NCBI GenBank assembly: GCA_044220955.1
Contig: JBGAQA010000042.1
Location: 1 to 54,629, forward strand
Direction: 5' to 3'
Length of the DNA stretch: 54,629 nt
Source: Sandaracinaceae bacterium
GTDB lineage: Bacteria; Myxococcota_A; Polyangia; Polyangiales; Sandaracinaceae
Shown here one piece after another: positions 47,756 through 54,535 of the stretch (positions are counted from its first letter, which is position 1; every line of letters begins with the position of its first letter). The translations under genes and the position numbers were made by a program. A model generated the notes under the pieces. The model ran no database searches and was not told the origin of the DNA. It was given only the letters and a program-made list of their open reading frames with translations.

Positions 47756-49150
<1,395 letters not shown>

Positions 49151-49217
49151 CGCCGCGGGAGTCTCCCGCGTCTGCACACTTGCCGGCAACGTCCCTTCGC
49201 GTCAAACCGCTCGCGCC

Positions 49218-49847
49218 ATGACCGACTCCGCCACCGCGTTCTTCACCACGGTCCTGCCCGCCCACTTCGGCAAGGGCGTCGAGGGCCTGCGCGCCAGGAC
49301 CGGACCGGGGTCGAAGGAGGCGCTCGACGACGTGCTCGCGAGCAAGGGCGCCATCCGCCTCGTGATCGAAGGAGAGGGCGAGACCTGGCTCGTGGTCGAG
49401 GACGGAACGATGCGCGCCGACACGGCGCGGCCGGAGGGCCTCGTCGTGCGCATGGCCTTCGGCTTCACCGCAGCCGCCGCCAAGGGCGCGGTGGCGCTGC
49501 TCGAGGAGTCGGGTCGCATGAACGACCCCGAGGCGCCCGTCCGCTTCGCGCGGACGGCGTCGGCTCGCGCCGAGAAGCTCCTCGCCGGGCAGAAGCTCGA
49601 GTTCCACGTGATCATCAAGGATCTGCCCGACGAGGCCGCCGACGTGGTCATCAAGGTCGCCATCGGTGCCGATGCGCCGCCCGACAAGCCCCAGTTCACG
49701 GCGGCCATCAGCTACGACGACCTCGAGGACATGCGTGAGGGCGACATCACGCCGCAGCAGGTGCTCGGGCGGCTGCGCCTGACCGGTGACGCGTCGCGCG
49801 CGATGGCGCTCGGCATGATGCTGATGCAGCCGCCCGCGAAGAAGTGA
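49218..49847 (+). CDS. SCP2 (sterol/lipid-carrier) fold-like protein
   Basis: C-terminal [36 protein letters not shown] resembles SCP2; N-terminal half is similar. Confidence 0.55.
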
Positions 49848-49853
49848 GCCGAC

Positions 49854-50861
49854 TTGCGTCGCGGTGAACTCGTCTTGGTCGCGCTCGCGCTCGCGACGAG
49901 CGTCGCGGCGTCGGCGCGCGCGCAGACGAGCGGCGAGTCGGGAGGCGAGGGCCAGAGCGCGAGCGAAGACCCGCCGCATCTCGTCGCCGGAATCGCGGAC
50001 GAGCGCCTCGCCGACGTCGACGACGGCATCGACGAGATCTTCGCGGCGTGGGCGAGCGAGCGCCTCTTCACGGGGCCCACCCCGTCCGGCAGCTCGCTGA
50101 CGCTGCACACCGAGCTGGGCGTGCGCTTCGGCATCACGCGCGACTCGCGCGCCCGCGTCGCGTGGGGCTTCGCCTTCTCCTCGTCGCACGTCGCCGGCGA
50201 GTTCCCCGACTCGCCCATGACGACGATGCACTACGACGCGCACGTCGATCGCGTCGAGGCGCAGAACCCGGAGCTCGTCTTCGAGTGGGCGCCCGTGATC
50301 GGCAGCACCCGCTTCGCGTTCGGCGCGGGCGTCGCGGTCCCGACGGCGGCGGGCGAGAACGTCGCGACGAGCACCGAGCAGGCGGCGGTCTACGACGCCT
50401 CGAGCATCACGCACGAGCTGATGCTCGCGACCGCCGGCGGTCTCGACCCCTGGCGCTACCGGCGCGAGCGCTTCGGCGTGTTCATCCCGCTCTCGTTCAC
50501 GTTTCCGCTCGAGCAGATGACCCTCGCGATCGAGGGCGCGGCGGCGATCTCGGCGCCCGTGACCGGCGCCGGCCGCGGTGTCCCTGTCACGGGCGACCTG
50601 CAGGCAGACCTCCAGCTCGCCGGCGACCTCATCCCCGAGGTGAGGCTCGGGGCGCGCTTCGGCATCGCGCTGCTCAACATCGGCTCGAGCATCGCGCCCG
50701 GCACCGTCGTGCAGCCGTCGGCCACCGGATACGTGCGTGTCCGGCTCGACCCGGGCTTCCTCGTCGCGACCGTGCTCGCCGACCTCGGCGGCTACTACGG
50801 TCTCGGCTCGGCCGGTGGCGTCTGGTCCATGACGCTCGGCGGCGGCGCGGCGATCCCCTGA
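49854..50861 (+). CDS. Secreted/outer-membrane hypothetical protein
   Basis: Signal peptide ending ARA; amphipathic beta-strands; start codon uncertain (TTG). Confidence 0.6.
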   Translation: MRRGELVLVALALATSVAASARAQTSGESGGEGQSASEDPPHLVAGIADERLADVDDGIDEIFAAWASERLFTGPTPSGSSLTLHTELGVRFGITRDSRARVAWGFAFSSSHVAGEFPDSPMTTMHYDAHVDRVEAQNPELVFEWAPVIGSTRFAFGAGVAVPTAAGENVATSTEQAAVYDASSITHELMLATAGGLDPWRYRRERFGVFIPLSFTFPLEQMTLAIEGAAAISAPVTGAGRGVPVTGDLQADLQLAGDLIPEVRLGARFGIALLNIGSSIAPGTVVQPSATGYVRVRLDPGFLVATVLADLGGYYGLGSAGGVWSMTLGGGAAIP

Positions 50862-50939: not shown

Positions 50940-51269
50940 ATGGGGACTCGGAACGAGGCGAGCGCGCGGGGACCCGCGACCGAGCTGGCCGTGCGGCACA
51001 TGCGGGCGCTGAAGCCGGAGCACCAGGCGCTGCTCGCCGTCCTGATGGCCGACGAGGGAATGGGCGGCGCCACGCTCGAGACGCTCGTCGAGCACCTCTT
51101 CGAGGAAGAGGACCCGCGGCTCGTCAGCGCGCTCTATCGCGCGCGGGCGGGCGGTGGTCTGGCCTCGATCTCGGCGAGCGTGCGCGTGGGGGCGACCGTG
51201 GGGAGCTTGCGGCGCGACGCGGTGCCGCCCGCGCGTTCCGCATCCGTCGGCTCGCTCCGCGGGCGCTGA
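50940..51269 (+). CDS. Encapsulin cargo protein with two targeting peptides
   Basis: GAGG RBS; C-terminal ATVGSLRR (51192-51215) and ASVGSLRGR (51240-51266), matching the myxobacterial LTVGSLRR cargo tag; directly upstream of the encapsulin. Confidence 0.8.
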   Translation: MGTRNEASARGPATELAVRHMRALKPEHQALLAVLMADEGMGGATLETLVEHLFEEEDPRLVSALYRARAGGGLASISASVRVGATVGSLRRDAVPPARSASVGSLRGR

Positions 51270-51304
51270 CGGACGTTTCGACTTCGCTGGTTGAGGAGAG
51301 AACG

Positions 51305-52129
51305 ATGACCGAGAAGATCCCGTTGAGCCCCGAGCAGCTCGAGTTCCTGCAGCAAGAGATCGTGCGCGAGGCGCGCCGCACGCTCGTCGGACGCCGCCTG
51401 ATCGGCCTCTACGGGCCACTCGGGCCCGGGATCGCCACGGTCAACATCGAGCACTACGGCGCCGACGAGGACGCCGAGATCGACCTCGAGGGCCGCACGG
51501 ATCCCAAGCCCGTCGTCGGCTCGAGCCCCCGCGTGCTGCGCGTACCGATCCTCTACAAGGACTTCGTCCTGCACTGGCGTGACGTCGCGTTCGCCAAGAA
51601 GGTCGGCGCGCCGCTCGACGCCTCGCGCGCCATCCGCGCGGCGCACGCGGTCGCCGACCGCGAGGACACGCTGCTGTTCAACGGCGATCCGAAGATCGGC
51701 CACGAGGGCCTGCTCGACGCCAAGGGGCGGTGCAGCGTCCCGCGCAGCGACTGGAGCAAGTACGGGAGCGCCTACCGCGACATCGTGAAGGCCACCGAGA
51801 CCTTGCTCGCGCACAACCACCACCGGCCCTTCGCGCTCGCGGTCTCGGCGGGCGACTACGCGCGCCTCGTACAGCAGCGCGAGGGCCAGTTCGCCCCCGA
51901 GCTCGACTCGATCGCGCGCCTCTGCGACGACGGCGTCTACAACTCGCCGACCATCCCCGAGGGCAAGGCCGTGCTGCTCTCGACCGGCGACCAGAGCTTC
52001 GACATCGCGGTGACCGAGGATCTCACGCTCACGTTCCTCGGCGAGCGCGACCAGGACTACCCGTTCCGGGTGTACGAGTGCCTCGCGCTGCGCATCAAGC
52101 GCTCCACGGCGATCTGCACGATCGAATAG
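51305..52129 (+). CDS. Family 1 encapsulin shell protein (Linocin M18 / HK97 fold)
   Basis: GAGGAG RBS; 274 aa; ARRTLVGRRLIGLYGPLG, PILYKDFVLHWRD, PLD..AA..EDTLLFNG, FDIAV.EDL, FRVYE..LRIKR..AIC. Confidence 0.93.
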   Translation: MTEKIPLSPEQLEFLQQEIVREARRTLVGRRLIGLYGPLGPGIATVNIEHYGADEDAEIDLEGRTDPKPVVGSSPRVLRVPILYKDFVLHWRDVAFAKKVGAPLDASRAIRAAHAVADREDTLLFNGDPKIGHEGLLDAKGRCSVPRSDWSKYGSAYRDIVKATETLLAHNHHRPFALAVSAGDYARLVQQREGQFAPELDSIARLCDDGVYNSPTIPEGKAVLLSTGDQSFDIAVTEDLTLTFLGERDQDYPFRVYECLALRIKRSTAICTIE

Positions 52130-52148: not shown

Positions 52149-53534
52149 ATGCGCACGCTCATCAAAGGTGGAACGGTCCTCACGGCGACGGAGACCTTCG
52201 CCGCGGACGTGCTCGTCGACGACGGAAAGATCGCGGGCCTCGCGAAGGAATTCACCGGGCACTTCGACGAGACGATCGACGCGAAGGGGAAGTACGTCTT
52301 CCCCGGGGGCATCGACGCGCACACCCACATGGACATGCCCTTCGGCGGCACGACCTCGTCGGACGACTTCGAGTCGGGCACGACCGCGGCGGCGCACGGC
52401 GGGACGACGACGCTGATCGACTTCGCGATCCAGACGAAGGGCAGCACGCTCAAGCAGGCGCTCGACACCTGGCACGCCAAGGCCGAGGGCAAGGCGGCGA
52501 CCGACTACGCGTTCCACATGATCGCGACGGATCTTCCGCCCGCGGCGCTCGCGGAGATGGCGGACGTCGTCCGCGAGGGCGTCACGAGCTTCAAGCTCTT
52601 CATGGCGTATCCGGGCGTGCTCTTGCTCGACGACCAGTCGATCTTCCGCGGCATGCTGCGCGCGGGCGAGCTGGGCGCGCTCATCACGATGCACGCCGAG
52701 ACGGGCCTGCCGATCGACGTGCTCGTCGAGCGCGCGCTCGCGAAGGGCCACACCGCGCCGATCTACCACGGCCTCACGCGGCCCCAGGTCGCCGAGGCGA
52801 CCGGAACCGAGCGGGCGATCGCGCTCGCCGAGATGGCCGGCGTGCCCGTGTACATGGTGCACCTGTCCGCGCACCGCGCGCTCGAGCGCGTGATGGAGGC
52901 GCGCGACCGGGGCCTGCCCGCGTACGCCGAGACCTGCCCGCAGTACCTCTTCATGTCGGAGGACGACCTCAAGGGCACGCCCGAGGATCCCTTCCAGGGC
53001 GCGAAGTACGTCTGCACGCCGCCGCTGCGCCCCGCGTTCCACCACGACCACCTCTGGCGCGGGCTGCGCAACTACGACCTGCAGGTCGTGGCGACCGATC
53101 ACTGCCCCTTCTGCTTCAAGGACCAGAAGGAGCTCGGCCGCGACAGCTTCGCCAAGATCCCGAACGGCATGCCCGGCGTCGAGACGCGCCTCTATCTGCT
53201 CTGGGAGGGCGTGCGCCAGGGCCGCATCTCGATGAACCGCTTCGTCGAGATCACCTCGACCGCGCCGGCGAAGATCTTCGGCCTCTACCCGCGCAAGGGC
53301 TCGATGGGCGTGGGCGCCGACGCGGACCTCGTCGTGTGGGATCCGGAGAAGAAGCACACGCTGAGCGTGAAGACGCTCCACATGCGCGTCGACTACTCGC
53401 CCCTCGAGGGCCGCGAGGTCACCGGCTTCCCCAGCGTCGTCATGCAGCGCGGCAACGTGCTCGCGCGTGACGGCAAGTGGCACGGCAAGGCCGGCGCCGG
53501 GAAGTTCCTCCGCCGCGGCACGTTCAACCTCTGA
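52149..53534 (+). CDS. hydA: Dihydropyrimidinase / D-hydantoinase
   Basis: PGGIDAHTH, GGTTTLIDF, SFKLFMAY, MHAE, VHLS, ETCPQYL, ATDHCPF, IPNGMPGVE. Confidence 0.93.
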   Translation: MRTLIKGGTVLTATETFAADVLVDDGKIAGLAKEFTGHFDETIDAKGKYVFPGGIDAHTHMDMPFGGTTSSDDFESGTTAAAHGGTTTLIDFAIQTKGSTLKQALDTWHAKAEGKAATDYAFHMIATDLPPAALAEMADVVREGVTSFKLFMAYPGVLLLDDQSIFRGMLRAGELGALITMHAETGLPIDVLVERALAKGHTAPIYHGLTRPQVAEATGTERAIALAEMAGVPVYMVHLSAHRALERVMEARDRGLPAYAETCPQYLFMSEDDLKGTPEDPFQGAKYVCTPPLRPAFHHDHLWRGLRNYDLQVVATDHCPFCFKDQKELGRDSFAKIPNGMPGVETRLYLLWEGVRQGRISMNRFVEITSTAPAKIFGLYPRKGSMGVGADADLVVWDPEKKHTLSVKTLHMRVDYSPLEGREVTGFPSVVMQRGNVLARDGKWHGKAGAGKFLRRGTFNL

Positions 53535-53554
53535 TCGCGGGCGCGACGGACCGA

Positions 53555-54535
53555 ATGCGCGAGCTGCCCGGCTTCCAGGACTTCATGCGACCGCTGCTCG
53601 AGCTGCTCGCAGGCGAGGCCGCGCCGCTCCGTGCCCGCGAGGTCTACGAGAAGCTTGCGGATCGGATGAAGCTCGATGCGGATGAGCGAGGGCAGCTGCT
53701 TCCCAGCCGCAAGCAGCCAACCTACAGGAACCGCATCGGCTGGGCTTCGACGTACCTGCGCTTCGCCGGCCTCGTGCAGTCGCCCACGCGAGGGATCTGG
53801 ACGATCACCGATGCCGGCCGGAAGCTCCTCGCGAAGAACAAGGGACGAATCGACCTCCGCGTGCTCCAGACCATCCCCGCCTACGTGGAGGCGCGCCGCG
53901 CTGCGGAAGGTGAGGAGGGCGATTCAGCGAACGAGGCTGCGACCGTGCCGTCGCTCCCGTCCGAAGAGACGCCTGAAGAACTGCTCTTCGCGGCTCACAA
54001 GCGAATCGTCGGCTCCGTGGCCGAGCAGCTCTCCGAACTTCTCCAGCAGGCCACGCCCGACTTCTTCGAAGAACTCGTCGTCGATCTCCTCGGTCGCATG
54101 GGCTACGGGACCTCCGACGATGCGCGGGTGCGTGTGGGCCGGTCAGGTGATGGCGGGATCGATGGCGTGATCTCCCTCGACAAGCTCGGCTTGGAGAAGG
54201 TCTACATCCAGGCGAAGAAGTGGGCTCCGGGTAACAAGGTCGGCCGACCCGACGTGCAGGCGTTCTTCGGTGCGCTAGCAGGGCAGCGCGCGACGAAGGG
54301 TCTGTTCATGACGACCTCCGCGTTCTCCAAGGAGGCGGAGCAGTACGCCGCGAGCGTTTCTGGCTCCCTCATCCTGGTGGACGGGAAGCGCCTGGTTCAA
54401 CTCATGATCGATCACGGGCTCGGAGTTTCGACCGCGCACACGTTGCTGGTGCCGCGGATCGACCACGACGGCCGCCGAGGCGGTCGCGGCCCTCCCCCGT
54501 CGCGGCCGGGTCGCGGTGGGCGCCAACGCGGGTGA
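53555..54535 (+). CDS. mrr: Mrr-family type IV restriction endonuclease (aberrant C-terminus)
   Basis: Mrr_N (P.FQDFMRPLL, LPS..YRNRIGWA) + catalytic FEELVVDLL, SGDGGIDG, YIQAKKW, LILVDG. Confidence 0.9.
   Translation: MRELPGFQDFMRPLLELLAGEAAPLRAREVYEKLADRMKLDADERGQLLPSRKQPTYRNRIGWASTYLRFAGLVQSPTRGIWTITDAGRKLLAKNKGRIDLRVLQTIPAYVEARRAAEGEEGDSANEAATVPSLPSEETPEELLFAAHKRIVGSVAEQLSELLQQATPDFFEELVVDLLGRMGYGTSDDARVRVGRSGDGGIDGVISLDKLGLEKVYIQAKKWAPGNKVGRPDVQAFFGALAGQRATKGLFMTTSAFSKEAEQYAASVSGSLILVDGKRLVQLMIDHGLGVSTAHTLLVPRIDHDGRRGGRGPPPSRPGRGGRQRG

Follow-up and report, generated by a model that had tools for sequence, protein, structure and literature searches.

Contig JBGAQA010000042.1 of a Sandaracinaceae bacterium (assembly GCA_044220955.1), whose 54,629 nucleotides are referred to here as the window, carries a small cargo gene immediately upstream of an encapsulin shell gene. 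The cargo gene (50940..51269, + strand) starts with ATG and encodes a protein of 109 aa with no Pfam or NCBIfam match, which belongs to a family of 124 aligned members and is under purifying selection. It is followed by an intergenic spacer (51270..51304, +) with a GAGGAGA ribosome-binding site, and then by a family-1 encapsulin shell gene of 274 aa resembling EncA of Myxococcus xanthus (51305..52129, +). The shell start codon is the ATG at 51305, not 51306, so 35 bp separate it from the end of the cargo gene. Scans for promoters and terminators around the operon, including the gap between cargo and shell, returned no such site, a result that is uninformative in a GC-rich genome. The cargo protein consists of a variable N-terminus (residues 1–10), a helical domain (approximately residues 11–70), an Ala/Gly/Ser linker and two targeting peptides (TPs). 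Its C-terminus reads ...VGATVGSLRRDAVPPARSASVGSLRGR, i.e. ...SVRVGATVGSLRRDAVPPARSASVGSLRGR, in which ATVGSLRR is followed by ASVGSLRGR. TP1 (A85-TVGSLR-R92; 51192..51215, +) has the same core as the TP of EncB, EncC and EncD, and TP2 (A101-SVGSLRGR-109; 51240..51266, +) forms the C-terminus 16 residues after TP1. The initial annotation had described a small open reading frame (ORF) with two VGSLR motifs 35 bp upstream of a family-1 encapsulin, and the ORF, the spacer and the shell matches to NF041155 and PF04454 bear this out. The two genes probably form a minimal encapsulin operon, as part of the interpretation favoured below.

Three segments of the helical domain are of particular interest. 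Helix A of a predicted hairpin (residues 26–37, KPEHQALLAVLM; 51015..51050, +), as delimited in the AlphaFold2 (AF2) model, contains Glu27 and the family-invariant His28. The hairpin loop D38-x-G40-M41 (51051..51062, +) is family-specific and nearly invariant. Helix B (residues 43–60; 51066..51119, +) contains H52-x3-E56-E57, which hhalign matches to the HxxxEE motif of EncFtn, the encapsulated ferritin.

The cargo ORF has a coding-type profile of GC content by codon position (0.78/0.55/0.89), and ratios of non-synonymous to synonymous substitution rates (dN/dS) of 0.19–0.41 for four orthologues indicate purifying selection; a fifth comparison, to L011, was disregarded as probably mis-framed. 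In 13,243,912 residues (six-frame ORFs of at least 50 aa from the whole genome), the strict motif [TS]VGSL[RK] was found six times. Two of the six occurrences are in the cargo ORF, and the remaining four sit in frames with non-coding profiles of GC content by codon position. Based on these observations, chance is excluded as the origin of the double motif.

The window cargo has no match in Pfam or NCBIfam at E values up to 1, no meaningful match among PDB sequences and no usable match in the ESM Atlas. A word-indexed search nevertheless returned 63 clusters of relatives, every one of them unnamed or annotated as 'hypothetical protein', and a HMMER search of 1.84 billion representatives returned 63 proteins at E<=0.001, including nine at E<=1e-10 and one at E<=1e-30. 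Both searches were pooled into a family set (P0001–P0125) from which 124 sequences were aligned, P0107 (710 aa) being left out. Named records for the near relatives are metagenome-assembled genomes (MAGs) labelled Sandaracinaceae, Polyangiales or 'Deltaproteobacteria', and others come from metagenomes. One distant member, P0100, derives from a MAG labelled 'Planctomycetes bacterium' by NCBI, so the family may extend beyond the Myxococcota, or the label of this bin may be wrong. No fused or longer form of the cargo was seen among 7999 candidates, which is weak evidence. Scattered Pfam matches among 55 members (VIT1 in 9, best E 0.014; TetR_C_11 in 7) were rejected as inconsistent, and a match to DNA gyrase B (A1 profile, E 0.06) was rejected as a chance similarity in a short helix.

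Several positions of the family alignment are very strongly conserved. H52, E56 and E57 are present in 124/124 sequences, H28 and D38 in 123 each, G40 in 121 and M41 in 120. Position 27 is Glu in 117 members and Asp in 7, and position 25 is Lys in 109 and Arg in 12. Greater variation is seen at position 59 (Pro in 73, Glu in 49) and at position 60, which is Arg in the window protein and Arg, His, Lys, Ala or Gln in 76, 16, 9, 8 and 8 members, respectively. The full signature H-x3-E-E-x-E-H is kept in 16 of the 124. Position 34, which corresponds to Tyr39 of EncFtn, is occupied by V, T, Q, K, A, R, S or L, with no aromatic residue in any member. No column of helix A holds 10 or more aromatic residues, and the sole column that does so within residues 8–75 is position 54 in helix B.

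The tags are also well conserved. LTVGSLR(R) is the TP of M. xanthus EncB, EncC and EncD in the account of these cargos in PMC11126975, as the initial annotation had stated. Among 55 sequences, V87, G88, L90 and R91 of TP1 and G104, L106 and R107 of TP2 are each at least 90% conserved. Counting [VIL]G-x-[LM] motifs past residue 60, there are two in 104 members, three in 9 (P0081, P0082, P0088, P0089, P0097, P0108, P0114, P0120 and P0121), a single one in 8 and none in another 3, these last two groups including several that look truncated. Both tags are thus retained in homologues, as had been anticipated, with two or three copies in 113/124. In contrast, all 120 of the EncB/C-type ferritin-like cargos compared have exactly one motif, and none has two or three. 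The spacing from tag to tag is 16 or 17 residues in 76 of 122 cases (range 11–40), a count inflated by the relatedness of the members, while the sequences of the linkers differ widely. This retention of length without conservation of sequence suggests that the spacing is under a geometric constraint. It is compatible with the bridging of two shell subunits by one chain: a rough estimate puts one protomer at ~3.5 nm, and 16 residues in extended form would span ~5.6 nm at most. The H. ochraceum cryo-EM preprint gives no figure for the distance between neighbouring tag sites. In the window clade the first hydrophobic anchor of the EncB/C/D tag, a Leu, is replaced in each copy by Ala, Ser, Thr or Gly, which may weaken both of them.

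The shell protein is a family-1 encapsulin by its matches to NCBIfam NF041155 (214.5 bits, cut-off 100) and Pfam PF04454 (E 1.9e-51). Its closest solved relatives are M. xanthus EncA chains, with residues 6–274 aligning without gaps to EncA 11–279 (E 4e-62). Asp209 and Tyr212 are kept as the equivalents of EncA Asp214 and Tyr217. Gly34 (51404–51406) occupies the position of EncA Asp39; the description of cargo binding in PMC11126975 has Asp39 and Asp214 forming salt bridges to the TP Arg. In a maximum likelihood tree of 25 EncA-like shells, from which 21 of the 30 shells at loci L021–L050 were left out as not reaching a blastp E of 1e-20 to the window shell, the 14 shells found beside a two-tag cargo form one clade (99/99 support). 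This clade is nested among EncB-type systems, with the shell of L050 as its sister. All 14 of its members have Gly at the Asp39 position, and the other rows of the alignment have Asp, Glu or His. At L050 (genome G026) the shell gene (1462–2316) is preceded by a gene (981–1427, +) for a different protein of 148 aa, which bears one tag, LTVGELIGR, and a helix reading GHVLEEQWE. This protein is matched by neither the two-tag family profile nor the EncFtn profile, and may be another unclassified mini-cargo.

The genomic context of the family is conserved at its core. A cargo homologue lies directly upstream of an encapsulin gene in all 13 loci fetched. In the nine genome loci the homologue is followed immediately by a shell gene whose product is 77–94% identical to the window shell, and in four more distant loci (genomes G400 and G190 and two metagenome contigs) the order is the same, with shells 70–74% identical. 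Genes for an SCP2-domain protein and a 335-aa protein upstream are common to the four nearest loci only, and the dihydropyrimidinase gene downstream to none. Since flanking genes are not shared across loci, the conserved unit consists of the cargo and the shell. The two features expected of family-1 cargos, a cognate-type C-terminal TP behind a flexible linker and linkage to a shell gene, are therefore both present, and the linkage together with the conserved TP cores supports the original proposal that the protein is a genuine cargo of the adjacent encapsulin.

The window genome is 87.9% complete and contains one encapsulin gene. No canonical EncFtn or EncB-like gene was found in it. A genome scan for other [TS]VGSL[RK] proteins had been proposed at the outset, and searches with this strict motif and with a looser C-terminal tag motif gave no further credible TP-bearing ORF. 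Other matches were rejected as off-frame ORFs or structured tails, such as that of a 710-aa protein ending AVGSLREDVARFSVG. The 109-aa protein is the only recognisable cargo in the genome. Of the 401 genomes that sample the phylum, at least three are matched by the family profile, the window genome included (a lower bound, with 12 first-look candidates scored per genome), and 35 have a family-1 shell. At the shell loci L021–L050 of this sample, an EncFtn/EncB-type ferritin-like gene lies beside the shell in 27 of 30. G190, a genome of the same order, has two encapsulin systems, L035 with an EncFtn-type neighbour and L053 with a two-tag cargo. The occurrence of both in one genome argues that they are not redundant. 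A genome of the same GTDB family as that of the window (G380, 11 Mb) has a classical EncFtn at locus L051 (126 bits to PF22277; tag STIGALKEER) beside a very divergent, long-branch shell, and no two-tag cargo, so the type of cargo varies within the family.

Comparison of profiles relates the two-tag cargos to the encapsulated ferritins. An alignment of the cargo family (A2) was compared with one of 28 EncB/C-type proteins, including an EncB named as such by NCBI, and two classical EncFtn sequences (A5). Their second helices align along 24 columns with a probability of 95.4% (E 2e-8), pairing H52, E56, E57 and R60 of the family with H42, E46, E47 and H50 of EncB/C. The distance from E27 to E57 is 30 residues, identical to that from E17 to E47 in EncB/C. 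Based on this identical distance to the bridging Glu, E27 is the likely counterpart of EncFtn Glu32. In the passages of PMC11202242 on the ferroxidase site, the EncFtn signature is HXXXEE62XEH65, the ferroxidase centre is made up of Glu32, Glu62 and His65, a secondary site of His57 and Glu61, and Tyr39 is conserved. The bridging Glu is essential in R. rubrum EncFtn, and the same passages report that the His65Ala variant loses only ~40–55% of activity. The motif formed by His57 and Glu61 is present as H52 and E56 in 124/124 members. The Glu/Glu/His (EXXH) ligand set is incomplete, with E27 and E57 present and Arg at position 60 in the window, where the clade has P59-R60 in place of the ferroxidase-centre Glu64-His65. 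The family profile also weakly matches EncC (7s8t, E 0.028) and IMEF (6n63, E 0.055), and the EncFtn hidden Markov model (HMM) picks up four family members (E 8e-5 to 9e-4).

The profile alignment, the shared HxxxEE, the identical spacing of 30 residues and the full HxxxEExEH in 16 of 124 members argue that the cargo is a distant relative of EncFtn and EncB/C rather than an unrelated class. The initial annotation was accordingly right that the protein is non-canonical with respect to Flp/EncFtn, since PF22277 does not find it and it is also not EncD-like, but its 'undescribed cargo class' is an overstatement. It had further placed LKPEH where EEKEH would be expected. The profile alignment instead places EEKEH at E56-E57-D58-P59-R60. 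LKPEH belongs to the first helix, in which the first ferroxidase Glu is represented by E27.

Like the window cargo, whose hairpin is a prediction, EncB, EncC and other TP-bearing encapsulated ferritin-like proteins (EncFtn, PF22277) are small helical-hairpin proteins encoded directly upstream of a family-1, EncA-like shell, with HxxxEE on the second helix, a Glu on the first located 30 residues before the bridging Glu, and a disordered Ala/Pro-rich linker leading to a TVGSLR-type C-terminal TP. They differ in that His28, Asp38-x-Gly40-Met41 and Lys25 are invariant in the two-tag family only, and in having neither the Arg for the ferroxidase His, the Pro for Glu64 nor the missing Tyr39 equivalent of the window clade. 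IMEF of Q. thermotolerans (6n63) offers a further parallel as a ferritin-like cargo without the canonical EXXH, with an H-x3-EEE stretch (HHIYEEEEQRL) and a TVGSL-type tag. However, a review describes IMEF as monomeric, a four-helix bundle of 192 aa that occurs in Firmicutes and bears one tag.

For the window cargo, AF2 predicts helices at residues 12–19, 26–37, 43–57 and 59–81, with predicted local distance difference test (pLDDT) values of 81–89 over residues 11–70 and a disordered tail. For the distant member P0072 it predicts a clean two-helix hairpin (H8–31 and H37–63, pLDDT 95–98). Residues 1–80 are predicted to form a homodimer with an interface score (ipSAE) of 0.69, compared with 0.01 for the best control. 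Of 30 proteins solved as pairs, 20 attain this score, as does 1 of the 23 solved as single chains; this calibration is only approximate, because a custom alignment was supplied and Fe ions were included. All contacts (100%) are the same between runs, and the pLDDT of the partner is at least 80. The predicted interface comprises residues 27, 31, 34–35, 37–38, 40–42, 45, 48–49, 52 and 55–56, and its contacts include 52–27' and the self-contacts 40–40', 41–41', 49–49' and 56–56'. The self-contacts along helix B indicate a parallel dimer in the model, which would place both tails at the same end.

Taken together, these observations suggest that the cargo represents a diverged branch of the encapsulated ferritin-like proteins, a dimer with a likely iron site that is tethered by two tags in an EncA-like shell, and we consider this the probable explanation, if with considerable reservation. 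The alpha-helical hairpin would pair into a symmetric dimer, with E27, H28, H52, E56 and E57 clustered at or near the subunit interface. This putative Glu/His cluster would most likely bind iron, oxidising or nucleating it inside the shell, and the system is probably still concerned with iron. In the window clade the site appears to have been rewired, with Arg60 for His65, Pro59 for Glu64, no equivalent of Tyr39, and the invariant His28 beside the first ferroxidase Glu; His28 may replace the lost ferroxidase His. A flexible linker with two TVGSLR-type TPs 16–17 residues apart would tether each chain, and since each chain has two tags the dimer would offer four anchors. The likely purpose of this arrangement would be avidity: the EncFtn decamer draws it from ten single tags, and two tags per chain would provide it to a small oligomer of low order. 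One chain could possibly occupy two neighbouring shell subunits. Several shell-binding elements also raise avidity in EncFtn decamers and phage scaffolding proteins, but those have no counterpart to two or three tandem tags per chain at a conserved distance.

Several observations weigh against this interpretation. The homology signal covers 24 columns of one helix only, and the cross matches at the HMM level are partly carried by the shared TP. PF22277 does not match the window protein, or its relatives L053 and L054, at E values up to 1 (classical EncFtn scores 126–131 bits and an EncB-like protein 25 bits), and the A5 profile does not detect the window protein. Of the 124 members, 108 lack the ferroxidase His and none has a Tyr at the Tyr39 position, so ferroxidase activity may be lost. 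In the models, the clade-invariant prolines P26 and P59 interrupt or kink both helices in the window clade. Fold searches with Foldseek and VIA give generic helical matches only, both for the window protein (best Foldseek E 3.6, VIA Z 5.2) and for P0072 (best Foldseek E 0.53, VIA Z 7.8), so that fold kinship to EncFtn or EncD is neither shown nor excluded. The predicted parallel dimer differs from the geometry of the EncFtn decamer, in which the ferroxidase dimer, on our reading of how the review PMC11202242 describes the symmetric c and c' sites, is antiparallel. The confident contacts of the dimer model include neither E57 nor H28.

The degeneration of the ferroxidase centre could also mean that the protein is an inactive scaffold derived from a ferritin. 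Arg60 would then fill the metal site, and the chain would be a bivalent clamp on neighbouring protomers that steers the assembly, size or stability of the shell as a phage scaffolding protein does, or recruits untagged partners. Such a role would fit the replacement of the ferroxidase His in 108/124 members and of Glu64 by Pro in 73/124, the missing Tyr39 equivalent, the constrained tag spacing over linkers of variable sequence, the change of the TP-contact residue Asp39 to Gly in 14/14 clade shells and the status of the protein as the sole recognisable cargo in its genome. However, E27, H28, H52, E56 and E57 hardly vary, if at all, in 124 sequences whose identity per column is otherwise ~32%, a pattern typical of a ligand or metal site and not of a passive spacer, and the shell is the only conserved neighbour, with no partner protein conserved nearby. 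The 'catalytically dead ferritin-like scaffold' of the initial annotation comes closest to the mark in its ferritin-like character with a degenerate centre, but 'dead' is not established, as R. rubrum EncFtn His65Ala retains roughly half of its activity according to PMC11202242. Overall an inactive scaffold seems rather unlikely. A related and likewise unlikely possibility, to which we give slightly less credence, is that the tags in tandem serve as a molecular ruler: a single chain would bind two adjacent protomers and a parallel dimer four, as an internal clamp or scaffold that would co-determine the assembly or size of the shell. The rewired site (E27-H28, H52 and E56-E57, possibly with an axial Met41) would in that case bind iron or a cofactor in a manner unlike EncFtn, and the shell change from Asp39 to Gly would be a matching adaptation.

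A redox protein that binds a cofactor in the manner of EncD, or of bacterioferritin at its haem site, would account for a different set of features. Here the dimer would bind flavin or haem, for example through Met41 and Met41' or a pair of His residues on the two-fold axis, and deliver electrons for the release of iron rather than its storage. EncD, the flavin-binding ferric reductase of M. xanthus, is likewise described in PMC11126975 as a helical hairpin of ~100 aa that dimerises and carries a C-terminal LTVGSLR-type tag in an EncA-type shell, and the cargo resembles it in size and, in prediction, in its hairpin architecture and dimer state. Met41, which 120/124 members have, meets Met41' on the dimer axis in the predicted model, and His28 and His52 are invariant. 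However, EncD has a single tag. It is also encoded away from the shell gene. No EncD chain is among the PDB matches at E values up to 10, with the single sequence and two profiles, whereas EncC and IMEF are reported there. The FMN (flavin mononucleotide) contacts of EncD listed in PMC11126975 are Tyr16, Leu17, Phe20, Arg12 and Arg23, and the flavin-stacking aromatics Tyr16 and Phe20 have no counterpart in helix A of the 124 family sequences. On these two grounds EncD was excluded as a relative. The detectable homology points instead to the ferroxidase helix, and the genome shows no separate ferroxidase cargo for such a reductase to serve, which makes a cofactor protein improbable. Least probable of all, and in our view very improbable, is that the protein represents an unrelated new cargo family in which the resemblance to EncFtn arose by convergence, from an acidic amphipathic helix and a shared TP. 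In favour of convergence, only one helix aligns, the window protein has no Pfam, NCBIfam or PDB match, and the fold searches are uninformative. Convergence would, however, leave to coincidence the identical H-x3-E-E-x-E-H nonamer in 16 members, the identical spacing to the helix-A Glu, a shell of the same lineage nested among EncB-type systems, and the same gene order with a small cargo directly upstream of the shell.

The genes on either side of the operon are of various kinds. A dihydropyrimidinase (D-hydantoinase) gene (52149–53534, +; TIGR02033, 579 bits) begins 20 bp past the shell stop. This adjacency is probably incidental, since in none of the nine related genome loci does the gene lie beside the shell. 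A gene for an Mrr-type restriction endonuclease with Mrr_N and Mrr_cat domains is at 53477–54535 (+). Upstream of the cargo are the gene for the 335-aa protein (49854–50861, +), which has a signal-peptide-like start and no Pfam family, and that for the SCP2-domain protein (49080–49847, +). A 477-aa ORF on the opposite strand (47756–49189, −) reads like a sigma-54-dependent response regulator, judged from its translation only.

Full-text searches, and the portions covered of PMC8346489 (section 7), the 2025 review PMC12746231 and PMC7925596, contain no description of this cargo family or of natural tandem-tag cargos; the census supplements, which may list such operons as 'minor' types, lie outside this scope. 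Section 7 of the 2021 census (PMC8346489) refers to 90 unassigned family-1 systems. Because the family is invisible to Pfam and NCBIfam and its members are annotated as hypothetical, encapsulin surveys based on cargo domains would file these operons as being without a known cargo.

One tag per chain and a symmetric di-iron centre of Glu/Glu/His are the defining features of encapsulated ferritins. The two-tag lineage keeps the glutamates, has mostly lost the His and the Tyr, has gained an invariant neighbouring His and has multiplied its tags at a fixed spacing, and its shell has changed a tag-contact residue alongside the cargo. The lineage is a natural experiment on the question of which residues of the ferroxidase centre are dispensable. 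It is equally one on how the valency and spacing of tags affect cargo loading, which would be useful for encapsulin engineering, where loading density is a practical limit.

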